The notes: a model not told the origin generated them from the letters alone. A stretch of 64,000 bases of DNA from Acidobacteriota bacterium (GCA_963666215.2 CAXWPL010000004.1:768001-832000), one strand, 5' to 3'. Numbered from the stretch's first letter, positions 1 through 10,326 are shown. A program made the numbers and translations.

Positions 1-1916
1 CCCTCGTCGAGGCCGACCACCCAGACGGTATCGAACTCGAGGCCCTTTGCAGCATGGATCGTCATGAGAGACACGCCGCGGCGGGCGCCAGACTGCGATT
101 CGGCATCGGAGATCAGCGCGGCACGGTCGAGGAAGCGGCCCAACAGCTTGGGGTCGGCCATGGTGGTGCCGCCGAGCTCCGCCGCCGACGAGACGACCTC
201 GTCGAGGTGGGCCAATCGCTCGAGCGGGTTGTCGGCGCTGCGCAGCGACTCTCGCAGGCCGCTGGCGTCGGCCACCTGTTCCACCAGCTGAGACAGTGTT
301 GTCTGGCCAAGGCCGCCGCCGAGCGTGACCACGATCTCGTGAAAGCGAACCAGGCCGGGCACCGCGGATGCAGGACAGCCAATCGCGCGTAGCGCGGCCT
401 TGGCGTTCGCCCCAGGCTCGTCGGAGCCAGGGCCGTCGGCCGCGCGCAGGATTTCGTCGAGAGCTTCGAAAGCCCCGACCCCCGGCCGCCACCGCGCGAG
501 CGCACCAATCGTCGCCGGCCCAACGCCCGGCATCTGGCCGGCTGCTCGCGCGAAGGCACCCTCGTCGGGCGTGACCAACAGCTTGAGCCAGGCAAGCAGA
601 TCGCGGATCTCGGCACGCCTGTAAAAAGTGGGCCCACCCACCACACGAAACGGCACCCCGCGACCCGCCAGCTCTTCTTCGAGAGGTCGCGACTGGGCGT
701 TCGTTCGGTAGAGCACGCCGAGGTCGTTCGCCGTTACCCCGGCGGCCATTCTCGAGGCGATCCCTTTGGCAACCCAGATCGACTCGCTGCGCCCGCTGGC
801 GCATTGCAAGACCTGGGGGAGGGGACCCTCGACGTCGGTATGGAGCGCCTTGCCGAGGCGCTCTCTGTTGTGACCAACGAGAGAGTTGGCCGCAGCCAGA
901 ATCGCACTCGTGGATCGGTAGTTGCGCTCCAGGCGGATCACCGTGGCACCGGGGAAATCGCTCTGGAAGTCGAGCACGTTGGCGATCTGGGCGCCGCGCC
1001 ACCGATAAATCGACTGGTCCTCGTCGCCGACGACCATCAGCGATCCACTGGCGGGCGAAGTCGAAGCCGACGGCGATGAGTCGCCTCCGGCGGCAGAATG
1101 TTCTGCTGGGCACCCGGGCGAGGGCATGGCGCTCAGAAGCGAAAGTTGCGGTTCGTCGTCCTGGTCGGGGCCCTCGCCGTGTGACGCGGCGGGGGCCGGC
1201 GCTGACCCCATGAGCTCGCGAAGCAGTCGGTACTGCAGGCGGTTGGTGTCCTGGTACTCGTCCACGAGCAGGTGCAGGAACCTGCCGCGCAGGAGCTTCC
1301 CGAGCGCGGGGTTCTCTTGCAGCGCGTGCAGTGGGCCGAAGAGCAACTCGTCGAAGTCAACGGCTCGCCGCCGCCGCAGCTCCGCGCGGTACGCAGGCCA
1401 GATGCGCCCCGCCAGTCGCTGCTCGAACTCGTAGCCGGCCACGTCCCAACCGGCCGGGTCTTCGAGCGCGTTCACACCACGACTACAGCGCTCGAGGAGG
1501 CGCCGCGGAGGCACCGTTTTCGGGTCGATTTCCAGCTCGTTCTGACAACCGCGCCAAACCGCAAGCGACTCCGAGCGGTCGTAGATAGCGAAGCCGGGAG
1601 GCGGCGCGCCCGGGCCGCCCGCGGCGTCGCGAAGGATGCGGAGTCCGAGCGCGTGGAACGTCAGCAACCAGAGGTCCGCCGGTTCTTCGCCGAGCAGCTC
1701 GAAAACCCGCTGCCGCATCTCCGCCGCCGATTTGTTGGTGAAGGTCAGAGCACAAATCGACGCCGGCACTGCACCCTGCTCGATAAGCCAGGCAATCCGG
1801 TGCGTGATAACCCGTGTCTTGCCGGAGCCAGCGCCAGCCAACACCAAGCAAGGGCCACCCGAGTGCGTGACCGCCGCGTGCTGTTCGGGGTTGAGAGCCT
1901 CGGATATCGATGACAT
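1..1916 (-). CDS. UvrD/PcrA-family ATP-dependent DNA helicase (3' end runs off the window)
   Basis: Manual translation from ATG at 1916: MSSISEALNPEQHAAVTHSGGPCLVLAGAGSGKTRVITHRIAWL...TFTNKSAAEM...DEYQDTN...VVGDEDQSIYRWRGA...LERNYRST...LYRTNAQSR (SF1A motifs). Absent from the ORF track because it has no stop in the window. Confidence 0.93.
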   Translation of the reverse strand, partial: MSSISEALNPEQHAAVTHSGGPCLVLAGAGSGKTRVITHRIAWLIEQGAVPASICALTFTNKSAAEMRQRVFELLGEEPADLWLLTFHALGLRILRDAAGGPGAPPPGFAIYDRSESLAVWRGCQNELEIDPKTVPPRRLLERCSRGVNALEDPAGWDVAGYEFEQRLAGRIWPAYRAELRRRRAVDFDELLFGPLHALQENPALGKLLRGRFLHLLVDEYQDTNRLQYRLLRELMGSAPAPAASHGEGPDQDDEPQLSLLSAMPSPGCPAEHSAAGGDSSPSASTSPASGSLMVVGDEDQSIYRWRGAQIANVLDFQSDFPGATVIRLERNYRSTSAILAAANSLVGHNRERLGKALHTDVEGPLPQVLQCASGRSESIWVAKGIASRMAAGVTANDLGVLYRTNAQSRPLEEELAGRGVPFRVVGGPTFYRRAEIRDLLAWLKLLVTPDEGAFARAAGQMPGVGPATIGALARWRPGVGAFEALDEILRAADGPGSDEPGANAKAALRAIGCPASAVPGLVRFHEIVVTLGGGLGQTTLSQLVEQVADASGLRESLRSADNPLERLAHLDEVVSSAAELGGTTMADPKLLGRFLDRAALISDAESQSGARRGVSLMTIHAAKGLEFDTVWVVGLDE

Positions 1917-2348
1917 CGCGGTTGTGAGTTCACCGTCGGGACAGGTCGTGAGTCGCCGTCGGGTTAGGTGGAGCGGTGGGTCGCGAGCCGCTGAGACTAC
2001 CGGCCGGTCACCGTCGCCGCTCGACACCCCGACCCGAGCGCGTTGGCCGGCGTCGCACAGCCGATAGGCGACGCGGCGTTCTGCAGACCGTCGACGAAGC
2101 GTCTGCGTCGCCGAAATCGCGAGAAGACCTTCGAACGAAGGCTATGGTCAGTCGCAACAGGAAAGCAGGATCGCCGGCACGCAAATAAATTGCGTTATAG
2201 TGGCCAAAACTGTGCCTGGATGGCCACCAGTGGGTGGTGTCCTAGTTTGAAATAGTTTGGTGCGCGCGAGCAGGTTCCGAAGCCTGCGCGGCAGGCGGAG
2301 AATCGGCTCTATAGAGGAGGCGAACCGTCGGCAGGCTGAACGACGTAC

Positions 2349-3290
2349 CTAGCCATCGTCGACCACCCCCGCTTCCTGCTGCACACGCTTCTGAGAGCGT
2401 TCCACAGCCCGCTTGGCCTTGCGTAGAACTAGGTTTATCCAGCTCTCAAAGTCCTCGTACTCCTCGACCGAGCGAAGCGCGGGCCACTGGAGAACCGCCT
2501 GACCGCTCTCAAGCGTGAACACGTCCTGGCTGTTGCCTTCGACCATTGGTGATCCTCCTCTACCCCCGGGGGCAGGATTCAACGGCGGCTTCAGCAGCAG
2601 TGCGGGCTTCTGTCCAGACACCAGTTCAGCGACCGGAATTCCCGTAGTGGTCCCTTCCACTTGCGCGTGGTCGCTGTCATAGAAACTGATGATCTTTCGT
2701 CCGCCTTCGGGGAACTGCAACACGCCGCCTTGTTCCCACTGTACGTAGTCTCCGACCGAGAAGTTGTGGCTGTCGGAGGAGTCTCCATCATCGTCCGACA
2801 GGCTATCAGACTCGGCCGGCCTGGCGAAAGCGAAGGTGGCCTTAAACTGCTTCAGGAAGTCCTTTGCGCCCTTATCAGTGAAACTCTTGTCGCTGCGCAA
2901 CCAGAAACGCACATTGACGTCCGAAGGCAGAGCGTCACTGTAGTTCTTGAGCATTTCTGCATGAATCGGGGGCTTCTCTGCTGCCTCGCGGATGAGCCGC
3001 GCCTTGTCCTCAGAGTCGGGACGCTCATCAATAATGATTCGCACCGCAAGGTCGGTCAGGCGCCCCTTCCGCTGATCTCCTCTTCCCTCATGATCCAACA
3101 GCCCGAACTTTTTCAGAGCGGCGAACGCGAGCCTTCCCCCACTGCTCTTGGGGGAGTAGTTCCAATGCCCGAGGATCGCCAAGACCGGCGCAGCATGCTG
3201 TTTCTCTTGACCGTACAGTGTTCGGGCCAGCTTAAGTGCTTCCTTTAGATCAATCGCAGGGTAGCTGGGGCTCCGTCCCTTCTTTGCCAT
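2349..3290 (-). CDS. Hypothetical passenger protein, probable N-terminal winged-helix (DUF5343-like) domain
   Basis: 313-aa ORF MAKKGRSPSYPAIDLKEAL...YSPKSSGG...AALKKFGLL, with GGAG RBS and its own promoter. Lower GC than the host genes. Family assignment is tentative. Confidence 0.7.
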   Translation of the reverse strand: MAKKGRSPSYPAIDLKEALKLARTLYGQEKQHAAPVLAILGHWNYSPKSSGGRLAFAALKKFGLLDHEGRGDQRKGRLTDLAVRIIIDERPDSEDKARLIREAAEKPPIHAEMLKNYSDALPSDVNVRFWLRSDKSFTDKGAKDFLKQFKATFAFARPAESDSLSDDDGDSSDSHNFSVGDYVQWEQGGVLQFPEGGRKIISFYDSDHAQVEGTTTGIPVAELVSGQKPALLLKPPLNPAPGGRGGSPMVEGNSQDVFTLESGQAVLQWPALRSVEEYEDFESWINLVLRKAKRAVERSQKRVQQEAGVVDDG

Positions 3291-3328
3291 GATTTCCACA
3301 CTCCATTTGTCCGAACCAGATGAAGACT

Positions 3329-3397
3329 AGAATACGCGACAAAGAAGAAGACTTCAAGACTCGCAGTCTTGCTGTCTGGAGACAAAGCGACTAAAGT
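3329..3397. promoter_or_regulatory. Back-to-back sigma70-type promoters inside element 1
   Basis: Minus strand: TTGAAG(3357-3352)-17 nt-TATTCT(3334-3329), toward the 3290 gene. Plus strand: TTGCTG(3369-3374)-17 nt-TAAAGT(3392-3397), toward the leader/transposase. Palindrome CAAGAC-N5-GTCTTG lies between them. Confidence 0.5.
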
Positions 3398-3413
3398 GTG
3401 TCCATCGTCAATA

Positions 3414-3448
3414 AGAAAGCCGGAAGCGGTTGTCGCCGCTTCCGGCTC
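3414..3448 (-). terminator. Hairpin upstream of the transposase leader, terminator-like on the antisense strand
   Basis: AGCCGGAAGCGG-TTGTCG-CCGCTTCCGGCT preceded by an A-rich AAGAAA (a U-tract on the minus strand). Confidence 0.5.
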
Positions 3449-3484
3449 AAAGCCTTTTCCCACCGTCGCTAAACAGGAGGAACG

Positions 3485-3688
3485 ATGCATTTCTACATCG
3501 GCTATTGGCCCATCGTACCACGGGGGCCGCCACTACTCCGAGGCCCCGATAAGGGGCTGTTGAACGACCCTAGAAAGCGCCCGGCTCCGCTGCTGTACAG
3601 CTCGGCCGGGCTAGATCCCAACGCGGGCAGAGCCGCACAGGAACCCTCAAAGCCATTGTGGTCCAGCCCGACATCCGGAGCAAGACCG
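3485..3688 (+). CDS. Leader peptide region MHFYIGYWPIVPRGPP... (putative arrest peptide), in frame with the transposase
   Basis: AGGAGG RBS 4 nt before the ATG. The first 16 codons are conserved with the element 2 leader, including synonymous changes. Confidence 0.55.
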
Positions 3689-4295
3689 ATGGCGAACAAG
3701 CTCTCTCAAGACAAGAAGCGCACCGTGATCTCAGCACTCGTCGAAGGCAACAGCATCCGCAGTATCGAGCGTATGACGGGCGTGCACCGCGACACCATCT
3801 GCCGGCTGCTCGTCCGCGTGGGCGACGGGTGCGAAGCGATGATGCGCGAGCGCTTCACCGGGCTCGACCTGGAGGATGTGCAGGTCGACGAGATCTGGAC
3901 CACTCCCAATCCACTAGGAGATAACCTATCCGTCGCTTCGCTCCGATGGCGTGATCACGATCAACCGTAATCAGTGATCACGTTCCCGTAATGACCGATC
4001 ACGATCACCGAAATACTCAGTTGTGGCCGGAGATCCAGATCCGGAGGCGATCTCCACGTCCTACGTCGAACGACAAAACCTGACGATGAGGATGCACATG
4101 CGGCGGTTCACGCGGCTCACCAACGGCTTCTCCAAGAACCTGCGGAACCTGCGAGCCGCCGTGTCGCTGCACTTCGCCTGGTACAACTTCGTGCGCGTCC
4201 ACAACAGCCTACGAACGACGCCTGCGGTCGTGGCGGGAGTAGCGGACGACGTTTGGTCGATGGACGATCTTCTGGCTTGGGAAGCGTCCTACTGA
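3689..4295 (+). pseudogene. IS1-family DDE transposase, internally deleted
   Basis: 5' part MANKLSQDKKRTVISALVEGNSIRSIERMTG...VDEIWT (3689-3900) and 3' part ...ISTSYVERQNLTMRMHMRRFTRLTNGFSK... (4021-4295) match the intact copy at 5354-6196. The middle is replaced by a foreign ~120-bp piece. Confidence 0.9.
3901..4019. mobile_element. Orphan end of an IS21-family element
   Basis: Three ~22-bp repeats (GTGATCACGATCAACCGTAATCA / GTGATCACGTTCCCGTAATGA / CCGATCACGATCACCGAAATAC) ending in ...CTCA at 4019, i.e. 5'-TG on the other strand. This is the repeated-end architecture typical of IS21. Confidence 0.7.
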
Positions 4296-4555
4296 TACGT
4301 GCCGCTTGCTTCTCTCACCGAGTGGAGCGTGACAGTCGTTTCATCGAAAGAGTAGTAGACGGTCAACGCCTTGATATCTGGCCACACTCCCGTGGCGATC
4401 GCCCAGATCTCATGATGCGTTTGGTGCCCCTGGGTAGGATCCAGGCAGAGAATCATATGCACCCCCGCCAGCACCTTGTCCAACCTGTTCGGGTTTGGCT
4501 CAAGGTCCCGAAACTCACGCAAGAATCGCGCTGTCTCGTGAATCCTATGCGCCAT
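4289..4555 (-). CDS. Small RelE/ParE-like putative toxin
   Basis: 88 aa, overlapping the stop of the Panacea gene. RelE-like pattern (HETARFLREF...LTVYYSFDETTVTLHSV). Confidence 0.55.
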   Translation of the reverse strand: MAHRIHETARFLREFRDLEPNPNRLDKVLAGVHMILCLDPTQGHQTHHEIWAIATGVWPDIKALTVYYSFDETTVTLHSVREASGTYQ

Positions 4556-5099
4556 CTGTCCCGGCAGCGGCGAGTTCTTGAGCTAGCTGCGCGCCGTAGG
4601 CCGTTTCTTCCTGCGTTAGGGGGCGCTTCGAGATGAAGACGGTTTCGTATGGAATAGTCTCGCCGTTCTCGACGATCTCCCACCCAACGTAACTATGCGA
4701 GAAGGCGCTGACCTCCGCCGCGTCCATGTCTTGGAAGTAATCGATGACATCGTTGACGATGGCGATCTGTTCCCCTGTGAAACCTGACAGGTCAGGGTCG
4801 CGCAGTGCCACAAGTCGATCCTGAACGAAGCCGTAACGCTCGCGGTGCTGAATGGCAGCTTCGCTCTGGTCGATGAGCCTCTTCCGAATCGGCAGCAATC
4901 GACGCGGTGCCGGCCCGCGATCAAGCCGTTGATACTCCTGCTCCGTAATCGCCGAACCGGTTTGTCCGAAGGCAATGAAGTCAGCGTAGAATAAGATCTT
5001 GTTGAGCTTGGTTGCGCCGAACTTCGGATCGTCTTCGGACCGCTCAGCAACGTACAGAATCAGCTCACGTAGCCGTTGGTCTCGTTCATCTGCGGTCAA
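4545..5099 (-). CDS. Panacea (DUF4065/SocA-like) antitoxin
   Basis: LRELILYVA...GATKLNKILFYADF...ITEQEYQRLDRGPAP...SH..GW..IPYE. Start chosen at TTG 5099 after GGAGAGGGGG; the ORF extends to 5132. Confidence 0.85.
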   Translation of the reverse strand: MTADERDQRLRELILYVAERSEDDPKFGATKLNKILFYADFIAFGQTGSAITEQEYQRLDRGPAPRRLLPIRKRLIDQSEAAIQHRERYGFVQDRLVALRDPDLSGFTGEQIAIVNDVIDYFQDMDAAEVSAFSHSYVGWEIVENGETIPYETVFISKRPLTQEETAYGAQLAQELAAAGTDGA

Positions 5100-5353
5100 A
5101 AGACACCCCCTCTCCGTCGTGTGCCCAGACAAATGTCTGTCTCACGCACCATCTTATGATCCCACGCGGAAGCCTGTCCTCATAGGACCGAAAATCCGTA
5201 GGGGGTCACGCGAGGTTCTTGCACCACCCCTGCAAAAAGCGAACCAAACTGCGCAGGAGTGACTTTCATAATGGGATACTATCCACCAGTGGGTAGTGTC
5301 CTAGTTTGAAGATCACCGCAACGTAGATTAGCACGATTATTGCCCTCTCTATC

Positions 5354-6196
5354 CTACGCCAGCGAGGGAGTCTCGAACGCCAGCAGATCCCCCAGCGCCC
5401 ACTCGCTGTCGGCAACCTCAGCCACCACGGCGGGAGTGGATCGCAGGCTGTCGTGGATACGGACGAAGTTGTACCAGGCAAAGTGCAGCGAAACGGCGGC
5501 TTCGAGGTTTCGTAGCGACTTCGAGAAGCCGTTCGTGAGCCTCGTGAAGCGCCTCATGCTCATACGCATCGTCAGGTTCTGTCTTTCGACGAAGCTCGTG
5601 GAGATCGCCTCCGGACACGGATCTCCGGCCATAACCTCAGTTGTGCAGCGGCTGACCCTCGGTGGTGAGTAACGTCCGAAGGATGGATTCGTGGCCGAGT
5701 AGCTTTTCGTCTGCGTGGCGTAGTCGATGCCACGGGCCGCCACGACGCCGAGAGCGGCCTTGTAGCCGGTGTAGGCGTCCGTAGTCAGCTGGAACGGTCC
5801 GTCGATCCTACGGGCCAGCTCCGAGATCATCTGATAGGCGTTGTGCCCGTTGCGCTTGCCGACGATCCAATGCGGCACCAACTTGGTTTCGGCGTCGAGC
5901 GCGACGAAGACCCATTGATCGCCATGCTTGGGATTCACGCGCTTGCCTGAGCGAATCACCGTGGCTTGCTTCTTCTTGACGTAGGTCCAGATTTCATCGA
6001 CCTGGAGATCGTCTAGGTGCAGACCGTGGAACCGTTCTCGCATCATGGCTTCGCAGCCCTCTCCGACCCGCACCAGTAAACGGCAAATGGTGTCGCGATG
6101 ACAGCCGGTCATGCGCTCGATGCTGCGGATGCTGTTGCCCTCCACCAGGGCGGAGACGATCATGCGTTTCTTCTCGGGGGCCAGTATGTTCGCCAT
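5354..6196 (-). CDS. IS1-family DDE transposase
   Basis: N-terminal HTH (GNSIRSIERMTGCHRDTI) and DDE motifs QVDEIWTYV, QLTTDAY, STSFVERQNLTMR. Confidence 0.92.
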   Translation of the reverse strand: MANILAPEKKRMIVSALVEGNSIRSIERMTGCHRDTICRLLVRVGEGCEAMMRERFHGLHLDDLQVDEIWTYVKKKQATVIRSGKRVNPKHGDQWVFVALDAETKLVPHWIVGKRNGHNAYQMISELARRIDGPFQLTTDAYTGYKAALGVVAARGIDYATQTKSYSATNPSFGRYSPPRVSRCTTEVMAGDPCPEAISTSFVERQNLTMRMSMRRFTRLTNGFSKSLRNLEAAVSLHFAWYNFVRIHDSLRSTPAVVAEVADSEWALGDLLAFETPSLA

Positions 6197-6252
6197 CGGT
6201 CTTGCTCCGGATGGCGGGCAGGACCACAATGGCTGTGAGGGTCCGATGCGGT

Positions 6253-6399
6253 CTATGCCCGCGTCTTGGATCTAGCCCGGTTCGCTGTTCGTGCAGTGGG
6301 CCGGGCGCTTTTTTGGTCGTGGAGGAGGCCCCTTTCGGGGCATGGGAGGCATGGCGGACCCCGTGGTAAGATAGGCAAATGACCGATGTGGAAACGCAT
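6253..6399 (-). CDS. Leader peptide MRFHIGHLPILPRGPP... (48 aa, putative arrest peptide)
   Basis: AGGAGG RBS, ATG at 6399, TAG at 6255-6253. Homologous to the 3485 leader. Confidence 0.55.
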   Translation of the reverse strand: MRFHIGHLPILPRGPPCLPCPERGLLHDQKSARPTARTANRARSKTRA

Positions 6400-6424
6400 C
6401 GTTCCTCCTGTTCAGAAGCGGGAG

Positions 6425-6499
6425 AGCCCCGGCGGGGAATCGAACCCCTATCAACCGGTTTTCAAGGCCGGTGCCCTTTGCCATTCGGGTAACCGGGGC
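6425..6499 (-). tRNA. Atypical tRNA or tRNA-like RNA, anticodon UGA, short variable loop, U73, inside the IS
   Basis: GCCCCGG TT ACCC GAATGGCAAA GGGC A CCGGC CTTGAAA ACCGG TTGAT AGGGG TTCGATT CCCCG CCGGGGC T. Perfect 7-bp acceptor stem, GG in the D-loop, TTCGA T-loop. No encoded CCA. Confidence 0.65.
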
Positions 6500-6512
6500 A
6501 ATGTGGTAAGTG

Positions 6513-6552
6513 GCGGCGACGAGAGGTACCAACTCTCGTCGCCGCTTTTTTT
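6513..6552 (+). terminator. Intrinsic terminator (possibly bidirectional) between the passenger gene and the tRNA-like gene
   Basis: GCGGCGACGAGAG-GTACCAA-CTCTCGTCGCCGC-TTTTTTT. Confidence 0.75.
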
Positions 6553-7032
6553 CTACGCGCCGTACCTCCGTGCTACGGCCCTGTCGATTCGATACCGACC
6601 GAAGCCGATCTTTTGCACTGCATTGTTATCAACAATACCTAGTCGAGATACTTTCGCGCGCAAAGTAGAGTCGGCAAGATCCGGATTGAACGACTTCGCC
6701 TTCCTGACGATCTCAGCAGACTTCCAGATCCGCTCCGGATCGGACGCCATCGCACGCAACACTGCTTCCTCTGCTGTCGGTGCACTGCTTCCACTGACGA
6801 CTTCCATCAACCCGATCCGTGCATCCCGTGGAAATATTTCACCAAGAGAATCGAAGATTTCACTCGCAAGTTTCAACATATGATGTCGAGTTTGTTGCAC
6901 CGCATGCATTTGACCGGCAATTTTCTGCCTACGGTCGTCTAACTCTTCGAGTTCTGCCTGAAGTGTGCCCTCGTCGTCTGCAAGTTGATGAGCGTCACGG
7001 ATCAGGCGCGTTGCAGTTTCTTTGTCTAGCAT
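6553..7032 (-). CDS. Hypothetical passenger protein: coiled coil plus probable C-terminal winged helix
   Basis: MLDKETATRLIRDAHQLADDEGTLQAELEELDDRRQK...WKSAEIVR..LRAKVSRL..VQKIGFGRYRI. GAGGG RBS and upstream TTGACT-16-TATCCT. Confidence 0.65.
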   Translation of the reverse strand: MLDKETATRLIRDAHQLADDEGTLQAELEELDDRRQKIAGQMHAVQQTRHHMLKLASEIFDSLGEIFPRDARIGLMEVVSGSSAPTAEEAVLRAMASDPERIWKSAEIVRKAKSFNPDLADSTLRAKVSRLGIVDNNAVQKIGFGRYRIDRAVARRYGA

Positions 7033-7206
7033 TTCTGTGCCCTCCGAATCGGAGGATATCACAGTCGGTAGCAAAGTCAAGAAAAAATTCAGGCACAGTT
7101 CGGCCCTCCTAGATCTGGTGTTGAGTGACAGGAAGTGGGTGAGATCGAACGTCGGGTAGTGGTCGAGCATGGGGGTTCTCAAATTAGGACACTACCCACC
7201 AGTGAC

Positions 7207-7236
7207 TTGACAAGCAATGCTTGAATTTCGTACAAT
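7207..7236 (+). promoter_or_regulatory. Near-consensus sigma70 promoter, copy 1
   Basis: TTGACA-18 nt-TACAAT, with the same layout at 9945-9974. Confidence 0.8.
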
Positions 7237-7242
7237 CTTTAG

Positions 7243-7290
7243 ATTGTTGCTGATGGACGCCTGTCCCGGCTTGCCGGGCGGGCTTTTTTT
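7243..7290 (+). ncRNA. ~48-nt small RNA ending in an intrinsic terminator, copy 1 (possibly Acido-Lenti-1-like)
   Basis: ATTGTTGCTGATGGAC-GCCTGTCCCGG-CTTG-CCGGGCGGGC-T7, starting 7 nt after the -10 box. Paralog at 9981-10028. Family name is from recollection only. Confidence 0.6.
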
Positions 7291-7464
7291 GTGCCTGCAG
7301 CGCGGTCCTCAGAGGCCCTTCTGGCCACTTCTTGCGGGCCCGACAACTCGCGGGCCCGACCGGCTCGCAACCGGCTCGGCGTCCTGCAAGACTCGCGTGA
7401 TCCTCACCTCGCAAAACGGCAACCGCCCGGACCCTGGTGTGCCGGAAAGTTCTGGAGAATCTCC

Positions 7465-9783
7465 ATGCCCCGCGTTCTCGCTCGCTCAATCCTCGCGGCC
7501 GCGATGGCACACGTGCTTGTCGCGTCGCCGGCGGCCTCGCAGACCGCCACCGTAGGATCCCAAAGCCCACCGCAGTTGACGCTCGACTCGATGTTCGTCG
7601 ATCGCGCGTGGGAGGCCGACTCCCTGAGCCCGGCGCGGTGGCTCGATGGCGACAGCTACACGACGCTCGAAGCCTCGGTGACGGTGCTCGGCTCCCGCGA
7701 TCTCGTGCGCCACGATGCCGCATCGGGCGATAGCGTGGTCCTGGTGGGGGCGCACGAGCTCCTCCCCGGCTCTGGCGACCAACCGTTGGAGGTCGAGAGC
7801 TACGACTGGTCGCCCGACGGCCGCCAGTTGCTGATCTTCACCAACTCGCGTCGCGTCTGGCGCAGCAACACGCGTGGCGACTACTGGATACTCGACACCG
7901 AGTCGCGGACGCTCGAACGGATCGGCGGCGCGGCGGGCGAGGCGACGTTGATGTTCGCCAAGTTCTCGCCCGACTCCACCCGGGTTGCGTACGTGCGGGC
8001 CAACGATCTGTACATGGAGAACCTTCGGGGCGGCGAGGCCAGTGTGATCACACGCCTCACCCACGATGGCTCCAATCTGATCGCCAACGGCACCTCCGAT
8101 TGGGTGTACGAGGAGGAGCTGGGCGTTCGTGACGGCTTCCGCTGGAGCCCCGATGGCAGCCACATCGCCTTCGGGCAGCTCAACGACTCGGGAGTGCGAG
8201 AGTTCACCCTGATCGACGACACGTCGGAGCTGTACCCGGTTCTACACAAGTTCCCCTACCCGAAGGCCGGCGAGACCAACCCGGCCGCGCGCGTCGGGGT
8301 GGTGCCGGCAGCTGGCGGCGACGTGCTCTGGGTTGACCTCCCCGGGGACACTCGCGACAACTACGTGGCGCGCATGGAATGGGCGGGCGGTCCCGACGAG
8401 CTCGTCATCCAGCAGATCGATCGCCGGCAGAACAACAACCGCGTGTTCCTGGCCGACGTGCGCACGGGTGAGGCAAGCCAGGTGCTGCTCGACACCGACG
8501 AGGCCTGGGTCGATGTCGTCAACGATTTGCGCTGGCTCGACGGGGGGCGCGCTTTCACGTTTGTGTCGGAGCGCGACGGCTGGCGACGCGTGTACCGAGT
8601 GGCGCGCGACGGCAGCTCCATCGAGCCGCTGACCCCGGCCGGCGTCGACGTGATGGGCATCGAGTTTATTGATGTTGATCCAGGTGGCGGCTGGCTGTAC
8701 TACGCCTCGACCTCCGATGCCACACAACGCTACTTGCACCGCGTGCCACTGACTGCGGACGACGAGATCGTGGCGACGGCGCTTACTCCCACTCGTCTCG
8801 GCGGCACGCATCGCTACGACATCGCACCCGGCGGTCGTTGGGCGTTCCATACATGGTCGAGCTTCGAAACGCCCCCGCAGGTAGCGCTGGTCGAGCTGCC
8901 CGATCACCGTACGGCGCGCGTCCTCGTCAACAACACTGCGCTGCGCGACCGTTTCTCCGCGCTCGAGCGGCCGCCAGCCGAGTTCTTCCGCGTTGAGGTT
9001 GAGCCCGGCGTCGAGCTCGACGCGTGGGTGATCTATCCCGACGACTTCGATCCGGCGCTCAGCTACCCGGTGCTGTTCCACGTGTACGGAGAGCCCGCCG
9101 GTCAGACGGTGCTCGACCGCTGGGGAGGCAGGAACTTGCTCTGGCACCACCTCGTGGCTCAGCGCGGCTATGTGGTCATGAGCGTCGACAATCGCGGCAC
9201 GCCATCGCCGCGCGGCCGCCAGTGGCGGAAGGTCGTTTACGGCGAGGTGGGCACCCTGGCGGCCAAAGATCAGGCCGCCGCGGTCCACAGAATTCTCCAG
9301 AATCGCCCGTACATCGATCCCACCCGAGTCGGCATCTGGGGCTGGAGCGGCGGCGGCTCGATGACCCTCAACGCCCTGTTCCGCTATCCCGATGTCTACG
9401 CCACCGGTATGTCGGTGGCGCCCGTTCCCGACCAGCGCTACTACGACACCATCTACCAGGAACTCTACATGGGAACGCCGCAGAACAACCCCGACGGCTA
9501 TCGGAACGGCTCTCCGATCACCTACGCCGACCGCCTCGAGGGCAATCTTCTCCTCGTACACGGCACCGGCGACGACAACGTCCATTATCAAGGCACCGAG
9601 GCGCTGATCAATCGGCTCGTGGAGTCCGGCAAGCCGTTCTCGATGATGACCTACCCGAACCGCACACACGCCATCCGCGAAGGCGCCGGCACCACACGGC
9701 ACCTGTACGGGCTCCTGACTCGCTATCTCATGGACAACTTGCCGGCCGGGCCGACCGCGCTCCGCGGCAAGGACCCATCTTGA
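7465..9783 (+). CDS. Dipeptidyl-peptidase IV (S9B), secreted
   Basis: Signal peptide, DWVYEEE, GWSGGG nucleophile, HGTGDDNVH, catalytic His in RTHAI. Confidence 0.93.
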   Translation: MPRVLARSILAAAMAHVLVASPAASQTATVGSQSPPQLTLDSMFVDRAWEADSLSPARWLDGDSYTTLEASVTVLGSRDLVRHDAASGDSVVLVGAHELLPGSGDQPLEVESYDWSPDGRQLLIFTNSRRVWRSNTRGDYWILDTESRTLERIGGAAGEATLMFAKFSPDSTRVAYVRANDLYMENLRGGEASVITRLTHDGSNLIANGTSDWVYEEELGVRDGFRWSPDGSHIAFGQLNDSGVREFTLIDDTSELYPVLHKFPYPKAGETNPAARVGVVPAAGGDVLWVDLPGDTRDNYVARMEWAGGPDELVIQQIDRRQNNNRVFLADVRTGEASQVLLDTDEAWVDVVNDLRWLDGGRAFTFVSERDGWRRVYRVARDGSSIEPLTPAGVDVMGIEFIDVDPGGGWLYYASTSDATQRYLHRVPLTADDEIVATALTPTRLGGTHRYDIAPGGRWAFHTWSSFETPPQVALVELPDHRTARVLVNNTALRDRFSALERPPAEFFRVEVEPGVELDAWVIYPDDFDPALSYPVLFHVYGEPAGQTVLDRWGGRNLLWHHLVAQRGYVVMSVDNRGTPSPRGRQWRKVVYGEVGTLAAKDQAAAVHRILQNRPYIDPTRVGIWGWSGGGSMTLNALFRYPDVYATGMSVAPVPDQRYYDTIYQELYMGTPQNNPDGYRNGSPITYADRLEGNLLLVHGTGDDNVHYQGTEALINRLVESGKPFSMMTYPNRTHAIREGAGTTRHLYGLLTRYLMDNLPAGPTALRGKDPS

Positions 9784-9944
9784 AACCCCGGTCGTCGGCC
9801 TGTCTGTGCGGTACGAGGCCTGATAGCTGCGGGCCGTCGTGAATATCCGGCTCTTGGTCGGAAAAAACCGCGGGCCGAGACGTCTCGACTGCAAACGATA
9901 TGGTCACAAGAGCGTACAGGTGTCTTACTGAACGTTATAGTGAC

Positions 9945-9974
9945 TTGACAACAGGGGCCAGAATTTCGTACAAT
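9945..9974 (+). promoter_or_regulatory. Near-consensus sigma70 promoter, copy 2
   Basis: AGTGAC-TTGACA-18 nt (..GAATTTCG)-TACAAT. Confidence 0.8.
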
Positions 9975-9980
9975 TTTCTG

Positions 9981-10028
9981 ATTGCTGCTGGTTATCGCCT
10001 GTCCCGGGTCGCCGGGCGGGCTTTTTTT
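9981..10028 (+). ncRNA. ~48-nt small RNA ending in an intrinsic terminator, copy 2
   Basis: ATTGCTGCTGGTTATC-GCCTGTCCCGG-GTCG-CCGGGCGGGC-T7. No plus-strand gene follows it. Confidence 0.6.
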
Positions 10029-10326
10029 GCGTCCGATTTGAACGCCACGGCCGCCCCTGCGGCGACGGTTTGGCGACGCGTGCTCGGGGCCCCAGGGCCT
10101 CCTCTGGGGCCTGGTGCCCACGCGGAGCTCGGGGACCTCCCCTTGACTGTCTAAGGAGCGTTTGGCGACGAGCGCCGGTACCGGCGCGAGGGCGTCGCCA
10201 TCCTGGCTGGCGGGCCAACCGATCGCGGTCCGGCGTGGTGGGAACCGGTGTGGAGCGACGTGCGGCATGCGGCGCGAGGGCTGCGTCGACATCCGGTTGC
10301 CCTACTCGACCGTTGTTGGGCTCGCG

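Follow-up and report, generated by a model that had tools for sequence, protein, structure and literature searches.

Two cargo-carrying elements are stacked on one 8-bp repeat

The DNA analyzed here, hereafter the window, is a stretch of 64,000 nucleotides from an Acidobacteriota bacterium (GCA_963666215.2 CAXWPL010000004.1:768001-832000). Near its start, two cargo-carrying elements of an IS1-like insertion sequence (IS) family lie end to end, and our analysis suggests that the second element probably used the right end of the first as its landmark for insertion. Element 1 (3051 bp; 2233–5283, plus strand) is the defective resident; element 2 (1905 bp; 5292–7196, minus strand) is intact and likely the later arrival. 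The window contains exactly three copies of the 8-bp sequence CACCAGTG, i.e., the target duplication forming the left outer flank (2225–2232), the spacer between the two elements (5284–5291), and the right outer flank (7197–7204). Every copy directly adjoins the tip of an IS1-like terminal inverted repeat (IR) of the type GGT(A/G)GTGTCC, such that the tips of the two elements face each other across the middle copy. These IRs read GGTGGTGTCCTAGTTTGA (2233–2250) and, inward from 5283, GATAGTATCCCATTATGA (5266–5283) for element 1, and GGTAGTGTCCTAGTTTGA (5292–5309) and, inward from 7196, GGTAGTGTCCTAATTTGA (7179–7196) for element 2. The number of repeats is unremarkable by itself, given that 1.86 copies are expected in the window and at least three occurred in 26 of 100 shuffles; the non-randomness instead lies in the register, with three copies placed at the same base beside IR tips.

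The two IR arms match at 17/18 positions in element 2 and 12/18 in element 1 (counted by eye). The transposases share 81.7–81.8% amino acid identity over the parts retained in element 1 (tblastn), with 77–79% identity between the genes, and both genes are convergent and aimed at the junction, which joins two right-type IRs (IRR), i.e., the ends distal to the transposase start. The cargo of the two elements is unrelated. An earlier note on this DNA, made from the sequence alone, had described a layout of three repeats and two elements with related but diverged transposases, opposite orientations, and different cargo, and our findings agree on all of these points. At its outer boundaries, the 4964-bp stack has nearly cognate IRs (2233 and 7196) and identical repeats, and in these respects it already resembles one larger element with a single functional transposase.

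The locus was found in public sequencing runs from several studies. Contigs of run X3 (records 9, 14, and 16) bridge all three junctions with zero differences, record 14 covering the middle repeat and record 16 the right one, and the middle and right junctions are also bridged in runs X6 and X8, which come from other studies (records 22, 23, 29, and 31). A 151-nt contig of run X1 (5273–5423) was not counted as bridging, since only 11 nt of it lie in element 1.

Element 1 carries a disrupted transposase gene and a candidate toxin-antitoxin pair

The transposase gene of element 1 persists as two fragments on the plus strand. The N-terminal fragment (3689–3901; 81.7% amino acid identity by tblastn, HTH_29) extends from the helix-turn-helix (HTH) to the DEIWT motif with the first catalytic aspartate, and the C-terminal fragment (4020–4295) contains the region of the catalytic glutamate. 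The 128-nt end of an IS21-family element takes the place of residues ~72–187, and with them of the second catalytic aspartate. This right-end remnant (3892–4023, plus strand) is joined to the transposase gene via a 10-bp microhomology, GATCTGGACC, and the joint within this microhomology fits an IS21-family insertion followed by a deletion. Other copies of the IS21-family end occur at 99–100% identity in the same genome (G000 C4:300227, C1:485773, and C2:356306), and a full copy (L160) encodes IstB (PF01695, 226.7 bits). Upstream of the transposase gene is a leader (3426–3688, plus strand) with a strong Shine-Dalgarno sequence, AGGAGG, and a short open reading frame (ORF) starting MHFYIGYWPIVPRGPP.

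Three further ORFs, all on the minus strand, make up the cargo. A 316-aa conserved hypothetical protein (2349–3299) has no match in Pfam, NCBIfam, PADLOC, or PHROG, and falls with clusters of hypothetical proteins in the ESM Atlas (scores 0.95–0.97); its N-terminal ~160 residues recur as cargo of other elements (L077, L118, L067, and L033), with 30–34% amino acid identity. At the other end of the element, a 195-aa SocA/Panacea-domain antitoxin (4545–5132; PF13274, E 4.1e-14, 53.9 bits) is overlapped at its gene end by an 88-aa ORF (4289–4555), a candidate toxin partner without match in family-library scans that included PADLOC and PHROGs. A paralogous pair of the same types, with gene order kept, lies elsewhere in the genome (G000 C5:1281060-1281852). 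The PADLOC and PHROGs scans of the cargo returned nothing besides Panacea.

Element 2 is intact and carries a tRNA-like gene

Transposase 2 (5354–6196, minus strand) comprises 280 aa from an ATG, or 291 aa from a TTG at 6229, and is a single ORF with HTH and DDE domains; the catalytic residues D67, D140, and E204 are conserved across 84 sequences. Its match to PF03400 scores 26.2 bits (cut-off 24.1) and spans only 33 aa, and its score against NCBIfam NF033558, 64.4 bits, is under the cut-off of 100.

As in element 1, the transposase gene is preceded by a short ORF or leader (6253–6399, minus strand; MRFHIGHLPILPRGPP...) with AGGAGG before it. The leader block (3426–3533, 6315–6415, and L158) is 79–85% identical at nucleotide level among three elements of this genome, includes AGGAGG, and encodes a short ORF of the pattern M-H/R-F-Y/H-I-G..PRGPP. 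It is common only to elements 1 and 2, an element on C1 of the same genome, and, in part, an element in genome G006; it is absent from 80 relatives of the transposase, and the Rfam scan was empty there. One of the three elements sharing the leader has a transposase just 41% identical, and the block looks like a module swapped between co-resident elements.

The cargo of element 2 includes a tRNA-like gene (6424–6499, minus strand) with a UGA (Ser) anticodon and a short variable arm, called by ARAGORN and matching the Rfam tRNA model at 31.8 bits (threshold 29). Its minimum free energy structure is a cloverleaf whose anticodon stem has either a mismatch or a 9-nt loop. In the G006 element, the homolog at this position (L155 8444–8519) has a GGA anticodon and compensatory changes in the T and anticodon stems, which suggests that selection may act on the tRNA-like fold. 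The elements at L097 and L052 likewise contain a tRNA. The remaining cargo ORF (6553–7182, minus strand) encodes a conserved hypothetical protein of 209 aa from a TTG, or 159 aa from the likely true start, an ATG at 7032; it scores 0.90–0.91 to hypothetical proteins in the ESM Atlas, and HARE-HTH is a weak lead. The expectation that the stack gathers toxin-antitoxin, regulatory, and RNA cargo therefore holds for the first, through the Panacea antitoxin and its candidate 88-aa partner, and for the last, through the tRNA-like gene; a regulatory part was not shown.

The closest relative of element 2 is this G006 element (L155 7664–10505), with a transposase 91% identical in amino acid sequence and a right IR of the element 1 type; the IRR of element 1 agrees in type with this relative's GGTAGTGTCCCATTATGAAAGTCAC. 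The flanks of the G006 element do not match (GGCAAACG and CATACGAG) and are thus uninformative on targets. A second IR-tip fragment lies 17 bp outside its right end and hints at mosaicism or rearrangement.

The stack lies at the edge of a promoter-like repeat

The right outer flank runs into a 91-nt repeat (7201–7291, plus strand) that is part of the target context and in which TTGACA-N18-TACAAT is followed by a GC hairpin and then a T-run. It recurs at 9939–10029, 81% identical and without insertion; these are the only two copies in the genome, and Rfam gave no match. From its sequence, the repeat looks like a promoter with a terminated transcript of ~50 nt. The left flank of the stack (2194–2232) ends with ...TTATAGTG, 30 nt, and ACTTGACA, and the second repeat copy (9930–9950) reads TTATAGTGACTTGACA; the 30 nt, with two occurrences of TGGCCA, may have been left by an older insertion at this position.

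We compared window positions 1200–8700 with 61 genomes, none of them of the same genus, in search of the allele free of both elements for which the earlier note had looked to related genomes. None was found, and the genes flanking the stack on its left and right are 143–153 kb apart in G003 and G001.

Element 2 is a precise presence/absence polymorphism

Two runs from other studies, X6 and X8, each contain a joint across which 1913 bp are missing, i.e., element 2 (1905 bp) plus one repeat. In X6, the joint has a depth of 10.3, compared to ~3 within element 2 and 14.5 in the flank; the corresponding depths in X8 are 5.3, ~2–3, and 8.6. In X3, element 2 is at flank depth and there is no joint. 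The joint and element 2 depths together indicate that both alleles coexist in X6 and X8, with the allele lacking element 2 in the majority. No joint removing element 1 was seen in the runs examined. Since the majority allele lacks exactly element 2 and one repeat, element 2 most likely arrived second. This separate and precise polymorphism bears out the proposal of two independent insertions.

The X6 contigs branch after 5276, with record 21 ending at 5276, record 22 starting at 5247, and a short side of 27 at the joint; the aligner also sets the X6 joint at 5273->7187. From these boundaries, we infer that the element-1-only allele bears the canonical tip GGTAGTGTCC, as in the IRR of the G006 relative. 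With a canonical tip, the allele lacking element 2 would not be a simple deletion through a 9-nt identical stretch, and it is best read as the ancestral state.

Other joints were also observed. One in X6 (6001->7179; depth 9.09, short side 22 nt) skips 1177 bp within element 2 and may represent either a deletion variant or an element from a different organism. There is a 6006->6125 joint in X3 and a back-joint in X8; sides below 30 often come from other organisms.

Relatives in many phyla belong to an IS1-like family with cargo

Scanning one genome per species, we found 556 loci encoding relatives of the transposase, the best 80 of which share 43–54% identity and come from many phyla. Half of these (40/80) were resolved by an IR pair with matching 8-bp flanks, the flank match being a criterion of selection. 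The 40 elements measure 1985–5350 bp, have the IR consensus GGTAGTGTCCTAATTTGA or subtype variants of it, and all contain cargo. Relatives with ~40% identity on plasmids of cultured bacteria carry the annotation 'IS1 family transposase'. The terminal IR consensus of the IS1 family, GGnnnTG, is matched by the ends in the window and its relatives (GGTAGTG or GGTGGTG), and the 8-bp duplications of the window and the 40 elements lie within the 8–9 bp that the family makes. The insA/insB' frameshift of classical IS1 is absent, with HTH and DDE held in the single 280/291-aa ORF; this layout presumably fits the single-ORF/ISMhu11-like subgroups of IS1.

We also surveyed the cargo, covering 150 of 154 mechanically called ORFs from the 40 elements (L031–L107) and recording family counts only. 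The recurrent Pfam families were HTH_3 (10), HTH_31 (9), Peptidase_M78 (5), GmrSD N and C (4 each), and CLP_protease (3), and rarer ones were N6_N4_Mtase, AAA_21, and AAA_15 (2 each) and RloB, AIPR, and DndB (1 each). As judged from these domain matches, the cargo of the relatives is largely of defence and toxin-antitoxin type, with predicted HTH/IrrE pairs, GmrSD restriction enzymes, ClpP-like proteases, and methylases.

The 8-bp sequence itself does not account for the precision

The earlier note had read the shared cut position as base-precise targeting. The fixed register upholds the precision, whereas targeting through the 8-bp site itself does not stand. The genome contains 132 copies of CACCAGTG, of which just the three in the stack lie beside exact IR tips. 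Exact tips number three genome-wide and are likewise all in this stack, which left no within-genome table of targets to be drawn up from IR flanks; one-mismatch tips are no commoner in the genome than a reversed-pattern control. The third family element of the genome (G000 C1, 1996 bp) is flanked by AGACAGGC. Among the relatives, 40/40 resolved elements have 40 different 8-bp duplications, with only a weak compositional preference (S-A-N3-T-Y-G, CC..N8..GG). The 39 stacked junctions described below are all distinct in sequence within 30 nt on each side. Given the 132 genomic copies, the AGACAGGC element, the 40 duplications, and the 39 junctions, the precision does not come from the 8-bp site, and no sequence-defined attachment site, as is typical of site-specific transposons, is present. 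These comparisons point to the tip of a resident cognate IR, at a fixed distance of 8 bp (7–9), as the landmark.

Stacking at the same spacing recurs in metagenomes

A metagenome scan for facing tips (TAGGACACTACC-N{0,30}-GGTAGTGTCCTA) yielded 43 loci, 39 of them distinct. The spacer was 8 bp in 28 of the distinct junctions, 9 bp in five, 7 bp in four, and 4 bp and 0 bp in one each. Hence, 37/39 junctions fall at 7–9 bp, compared to a uniform expectation of ~1/31 per length; a cognate IR lies at a spacing equal to the duplication length, as expected of end-directed insertion. The left and right sides of these junctions have only IRs in common, indicating that they are not hairpin chimeras. In 13/39 loci (L111, L112, L113, L114, L120, L122, L126, L127, L134/L142, L136, L143, L146, and L149), a third or fourth copy of the spacer lies directly against a correctly oriented IR-like tip. 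Three units are stacked in L126, L127, and L146. Some partners are heterologous, with convergent transposases sharing 40% amino acid identity in L128 and 74% in L136. The array building that the earlier note foresaw is observed elsewhere, as two to three units with up to four repeat copies in L120, L126, L127, and L146.

Three contigs, L115, L125, and L152, have a circular or circularly permuted form, in which the IRs of one element meet across 8, 8, and 7 bp, respectively; they represent circles or tandem dimers. Across 401 genomes of the window's phylum, there was one junction with a 9-bp spacer, and the IR subtype GGTAGTGGGTC gave two junctions, of 8 and 9 bp, in 200 genomes. As a control, 981 kb of genome loci were scanned with relaxed tips; the resulting pairs, mostly due to chance, had spacers distributed evenly in length. 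Among junction-side elements of the metagenomes and the window, 15 point toward the junction and four away, in a small and partly non-independent sample. Most often, the elements abut the junction with the end that follows their transposase gene.

One array (L161, 1296–1628) comprises three 99-bp mini-elements with ~93% mean column identity (spacers included); it has two differing 9-bp spacers and an identical 9-bp repeat around the whole. This fits transposition of the array as a unit after repeated stacking, and suggests that stacks apparently move on as one composite.

End-directed insertion is the probable origin of the stack

We consider it probable that element 2 was directed to its site by the right end of element 1. 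In this account, the order in which the elements arrived, the base-level precision, the recurrence of stacking, and the variety of targets are counted as observed; transposase dependence, strand-transfer geometry, and the copy-out-paste-in route are parts that we infer. Under this account, element 1 would have inserted first, creating the CACCAGTG duplication, and would later have been killed by the IS21-family insertion and deletion. Transposase 2 would have bound the then-canonical IR tip of element 1, and two staggered strand transfers would have occurred at the phosphodiesters bounding the 8-bp flank of element 1. The bonds needed are on the top strand at the IR tip and on the bottom strand 8 bp outside. 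A transpososome assembled on the resident end would normally engage both, as its 3' cleavage site and as the site of attack at an abutted-end (circle) junction. A transposase bound to the resident IR would thereby position the incoming ends in exact register without recognizing the 8-mer. Gap repair would then have duplicated the same 8 bp again, giving repeat-element 1-repeat-element 2-repeat. Two substitutions at the tip of the element 1 IRR would have come after element 2 landed, and may have inactivated a reactive IR-IR junction. The same end-directed stacking across the family would produce the arrays of two to three units.

Several other explanations were weighed against this one. It is hardly conceivable that an assembly artefact wrongly joined the two elements. 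While repeats do break short-read assemblies, and Logan contigs break at the IS21 remnant, X3 spans all three junctions without differences and X6 and X8 span the middle and right ones; moreover, the two elements are too dissimilar to collapse, and junction sides that share only IRs in the metagenomes leave no room for hairpin chimeras. Misassembly, the event that the earlier note had named as fatal to its account, is excluded by these contigs from three runs. Recognition of CACCAGTG or its immediate context by the transposase is extremely unlikely. The three identical repeats of the window would agree with it, as would the nearly palindromic nature of CACCAGTG and its fit to the weak family preference S-A-N3-T-Y-G, but these are outweighed by the 132 genomic copies, of which only the stack's three adjoin exact tips, by AGACAGGC at the third element, and by the 40 different duplications and 39 distinct junctions. 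Very unlikely, too, is a tandem dimer formed in situ from one element, through homologous re-integration of a circle or joining of sister-chromatid ends, with copies that then diverged, inverted, and exchanged cargo. Same-element head-to-tail junctions with 7–8-bp spacers do occur in L115, L125, and L152, and L120 and L161 hold tandem units of one type of miniature inverted-repeat transposable element (MITE). In the window, however, the transposase genes are 77–79% identical and convergent, the cargo is unrelated, and element 2 is a clean 1913-bp polymorphism among near-identical strains, and heterologous stacks (40% and 74% amino acid identity) are found elsewhere.

It is also very improbable that a structural feature of the site, such as a bent or open stretch upstream of the promoter-like 91-nt repeat, drew both insertions to the same phosphodiesters without regard to the resident element. 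DDE transposases often favour structural features, and the site is at the upstream edge of the TTGACA-N18-TACAAT unit, which is present twice in the window. However, the second unit (9939) is empty, the first insertion would replace half of any such site with element DNA, and a hot spot leaves the shared 7–9-bp register of 37/39 unrelated junctions unexplained. The alternative that deserves more weight, while still being unlikely, retains direction by the resident end but invokes one-ended strand transfer of the IS30/IS911 type, beside the resident IR, after which host processing would follow or a junction would form between distant copies. Some stacks (L118, L140, L153, and L161) have spacers that differ from their outer flanks, consistent with such a route. 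In contrast, the identity of all repeats in the window and at 13/39 loci is the signature of ordinary 8-bp staggered insertion, and the IR of element 1 was not converted toward that of element 2 but diverged at its tip instead.

Some findings weigh against insertion directed by the resident end. The whole case is drawn from static sequences. Stacking is a minority outcome: among the 40 complete genome elements, not one of the 80 ends has another IR facing it at 7–9 bp, and the metagenome figures are counts of junctions. The IRR of element 1 is degenerate in the window, reading GATAGTATCC at its tip and matching 8/10 positions of the canonical tip; its canonical state at the time of insertion is deduced from contig boundaries, and the allele lacking element 2 could in principle reflect precise loss rather than the ancestral state. 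IS30 junctions are described as exclusively left-to-right (IRL-IRR) in PMC9333248, and the IRR-IRR junction of the window departs from this. At six distal ends defined by 18-mers (L118, L129, L140, L143 right, L150, and L153), the flank is not the spacer sequence. Automatic pairing with the nearest tip gave 13/36 matches, but this method is noisy and was dropped, given that 10-mers with up to two mismatches arise by chance about once per 2 kb; 18-mer hits and spacer recurrence were used in its place. Ends of differing IR subtypes also lie 2, 5, and 21 bp apart (L066, L100, and L058, respectively), and many partners are mini-elements of 23–125 bp (L112, L122, L143, L139, L146, L120, L114, and L127).

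Several of these loci show further features. At L066 (2570–5470), where the spacing is 2 bp, the duplication GTGGTAGT takes in the first 6 nt of the neighbour's IR, and this overlap indicates that the newcomer landed inside the neighbour's tip. At L100 (~4407), an element lies 5 bp from an end of the other IR subtype. The mini-elements consist of little beyond two IR tips, and some are 27-bp near-palindromes; in-situ deletion, footprints, and mobile MITEs are candidates for their origin.

Implications for cargo accretion

More broadly, and as a tentative proposal, this widespread IS1-family clade with defence and toxin-antitoxin cargo may use the ends of its relatives as landing pads in an exact 8-bp register, building multi-unit arrays that are then mobilised as whole stacks through decay of inner ends or use of outer ends. 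If true, this would be a transposase-driven and integron-like route by which insertion sequences gain cargo and small defence islands grow. Landing 8 bp outside a relative's end would be a simple mechanism of cargo accretion without a conserved chromosomal site, and composite movement of stacks may offer another possible route to cargo growth. Given the cargo families that recur in the 40 relatives, stacks would juxtapose defence-type modules. The proposal bears on open questions of how insertion sequences acquire passenger genes and how genes for defence and toxin-antitoxin systems come to lie in clusters. With its natural presence/absence polymorphism visible in public runs, the locus is a ready model, and a short IR that draws insertions to one particular base could be turned into a landing pad for engineering.

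Comparison with known systems

Our searches of open-access text returned no account of the family or of its IR, nor of IS1-type elements that stack in exact register; cargo-carrying IS1-family elements and end-directed insertion are each known separately. IS30 has a dual choice of targets, i.e., hot-spot sequences or positions beside its own IRs, with formation of IR-IR junctions, and circles and tandem dimers belong to its pathway (PMC9333248). The stack resembles this system in that insertion occurs beside a resident cognate IR and in that the junction spacer equals the duplication length (PMC9333248). However, the IS30 spacer is 2 bp and its junctions are highly unstable, whereas the spacer here is 8 bp (7–9) and stacks persist in genomes. 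The partners here are also heterologous, carry cargo, and belong to a different transposase family.

IS911, of the IS3 family, makes 3–4-bp duplications and is regulated by OrfA. Its targeted transposition is called probably similar to the IR-targeting of IS30 (PMC9333248), and targeted insertion is said to require RecG (PMC7986276). IS911 shares with the stack an insertion beside a resident IR; natural cargo arrays are not described in the text examined on it. In IS26, of the IS6 family, neighbouring units have a single IS copy in common and no further duplication arises. Its targeted conservative route sets the incoming unit beside a resident IS copy and yields arrays of cargo genes (PMC7986276). 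While array growth beside a resident copy is common to both, every unit here retains two IRs of its own, there are three copies of the 8-bp repeat, and partners are down to 40% identical; the stack thus lacks the arrangement left by IS26-type conservative integration.

IS1 itself makes 8–9-bp duplications (PMC12428005) and is listed among the IS families with circular intermediates, presumably reflecting copy-out-paste-in transposition (bioRxiv 10.1101/2023.06.07.543989). The open-access text searched contains no description of end-directed stacking in IS1. The elements of the stack resemble IS1 in their GGnnnTG ends, 8-bp duplication, weak matches to IS1 models, and passenger genes, and differ from classical IS1 in lacking the insA/insB' frameshift and in scoring under the cut-off of the NCBIfam IS1 model. 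Repeated insertion at one base also builds tandem cargo arrays in Tn7 at attTn7 and in tandem genomic islands at tRNA genes. These systems read a conserved chromosomal sequence, whereas in the stacks described here the chromosomal sequence is arbitrary and the resident end would serve as the landmark.

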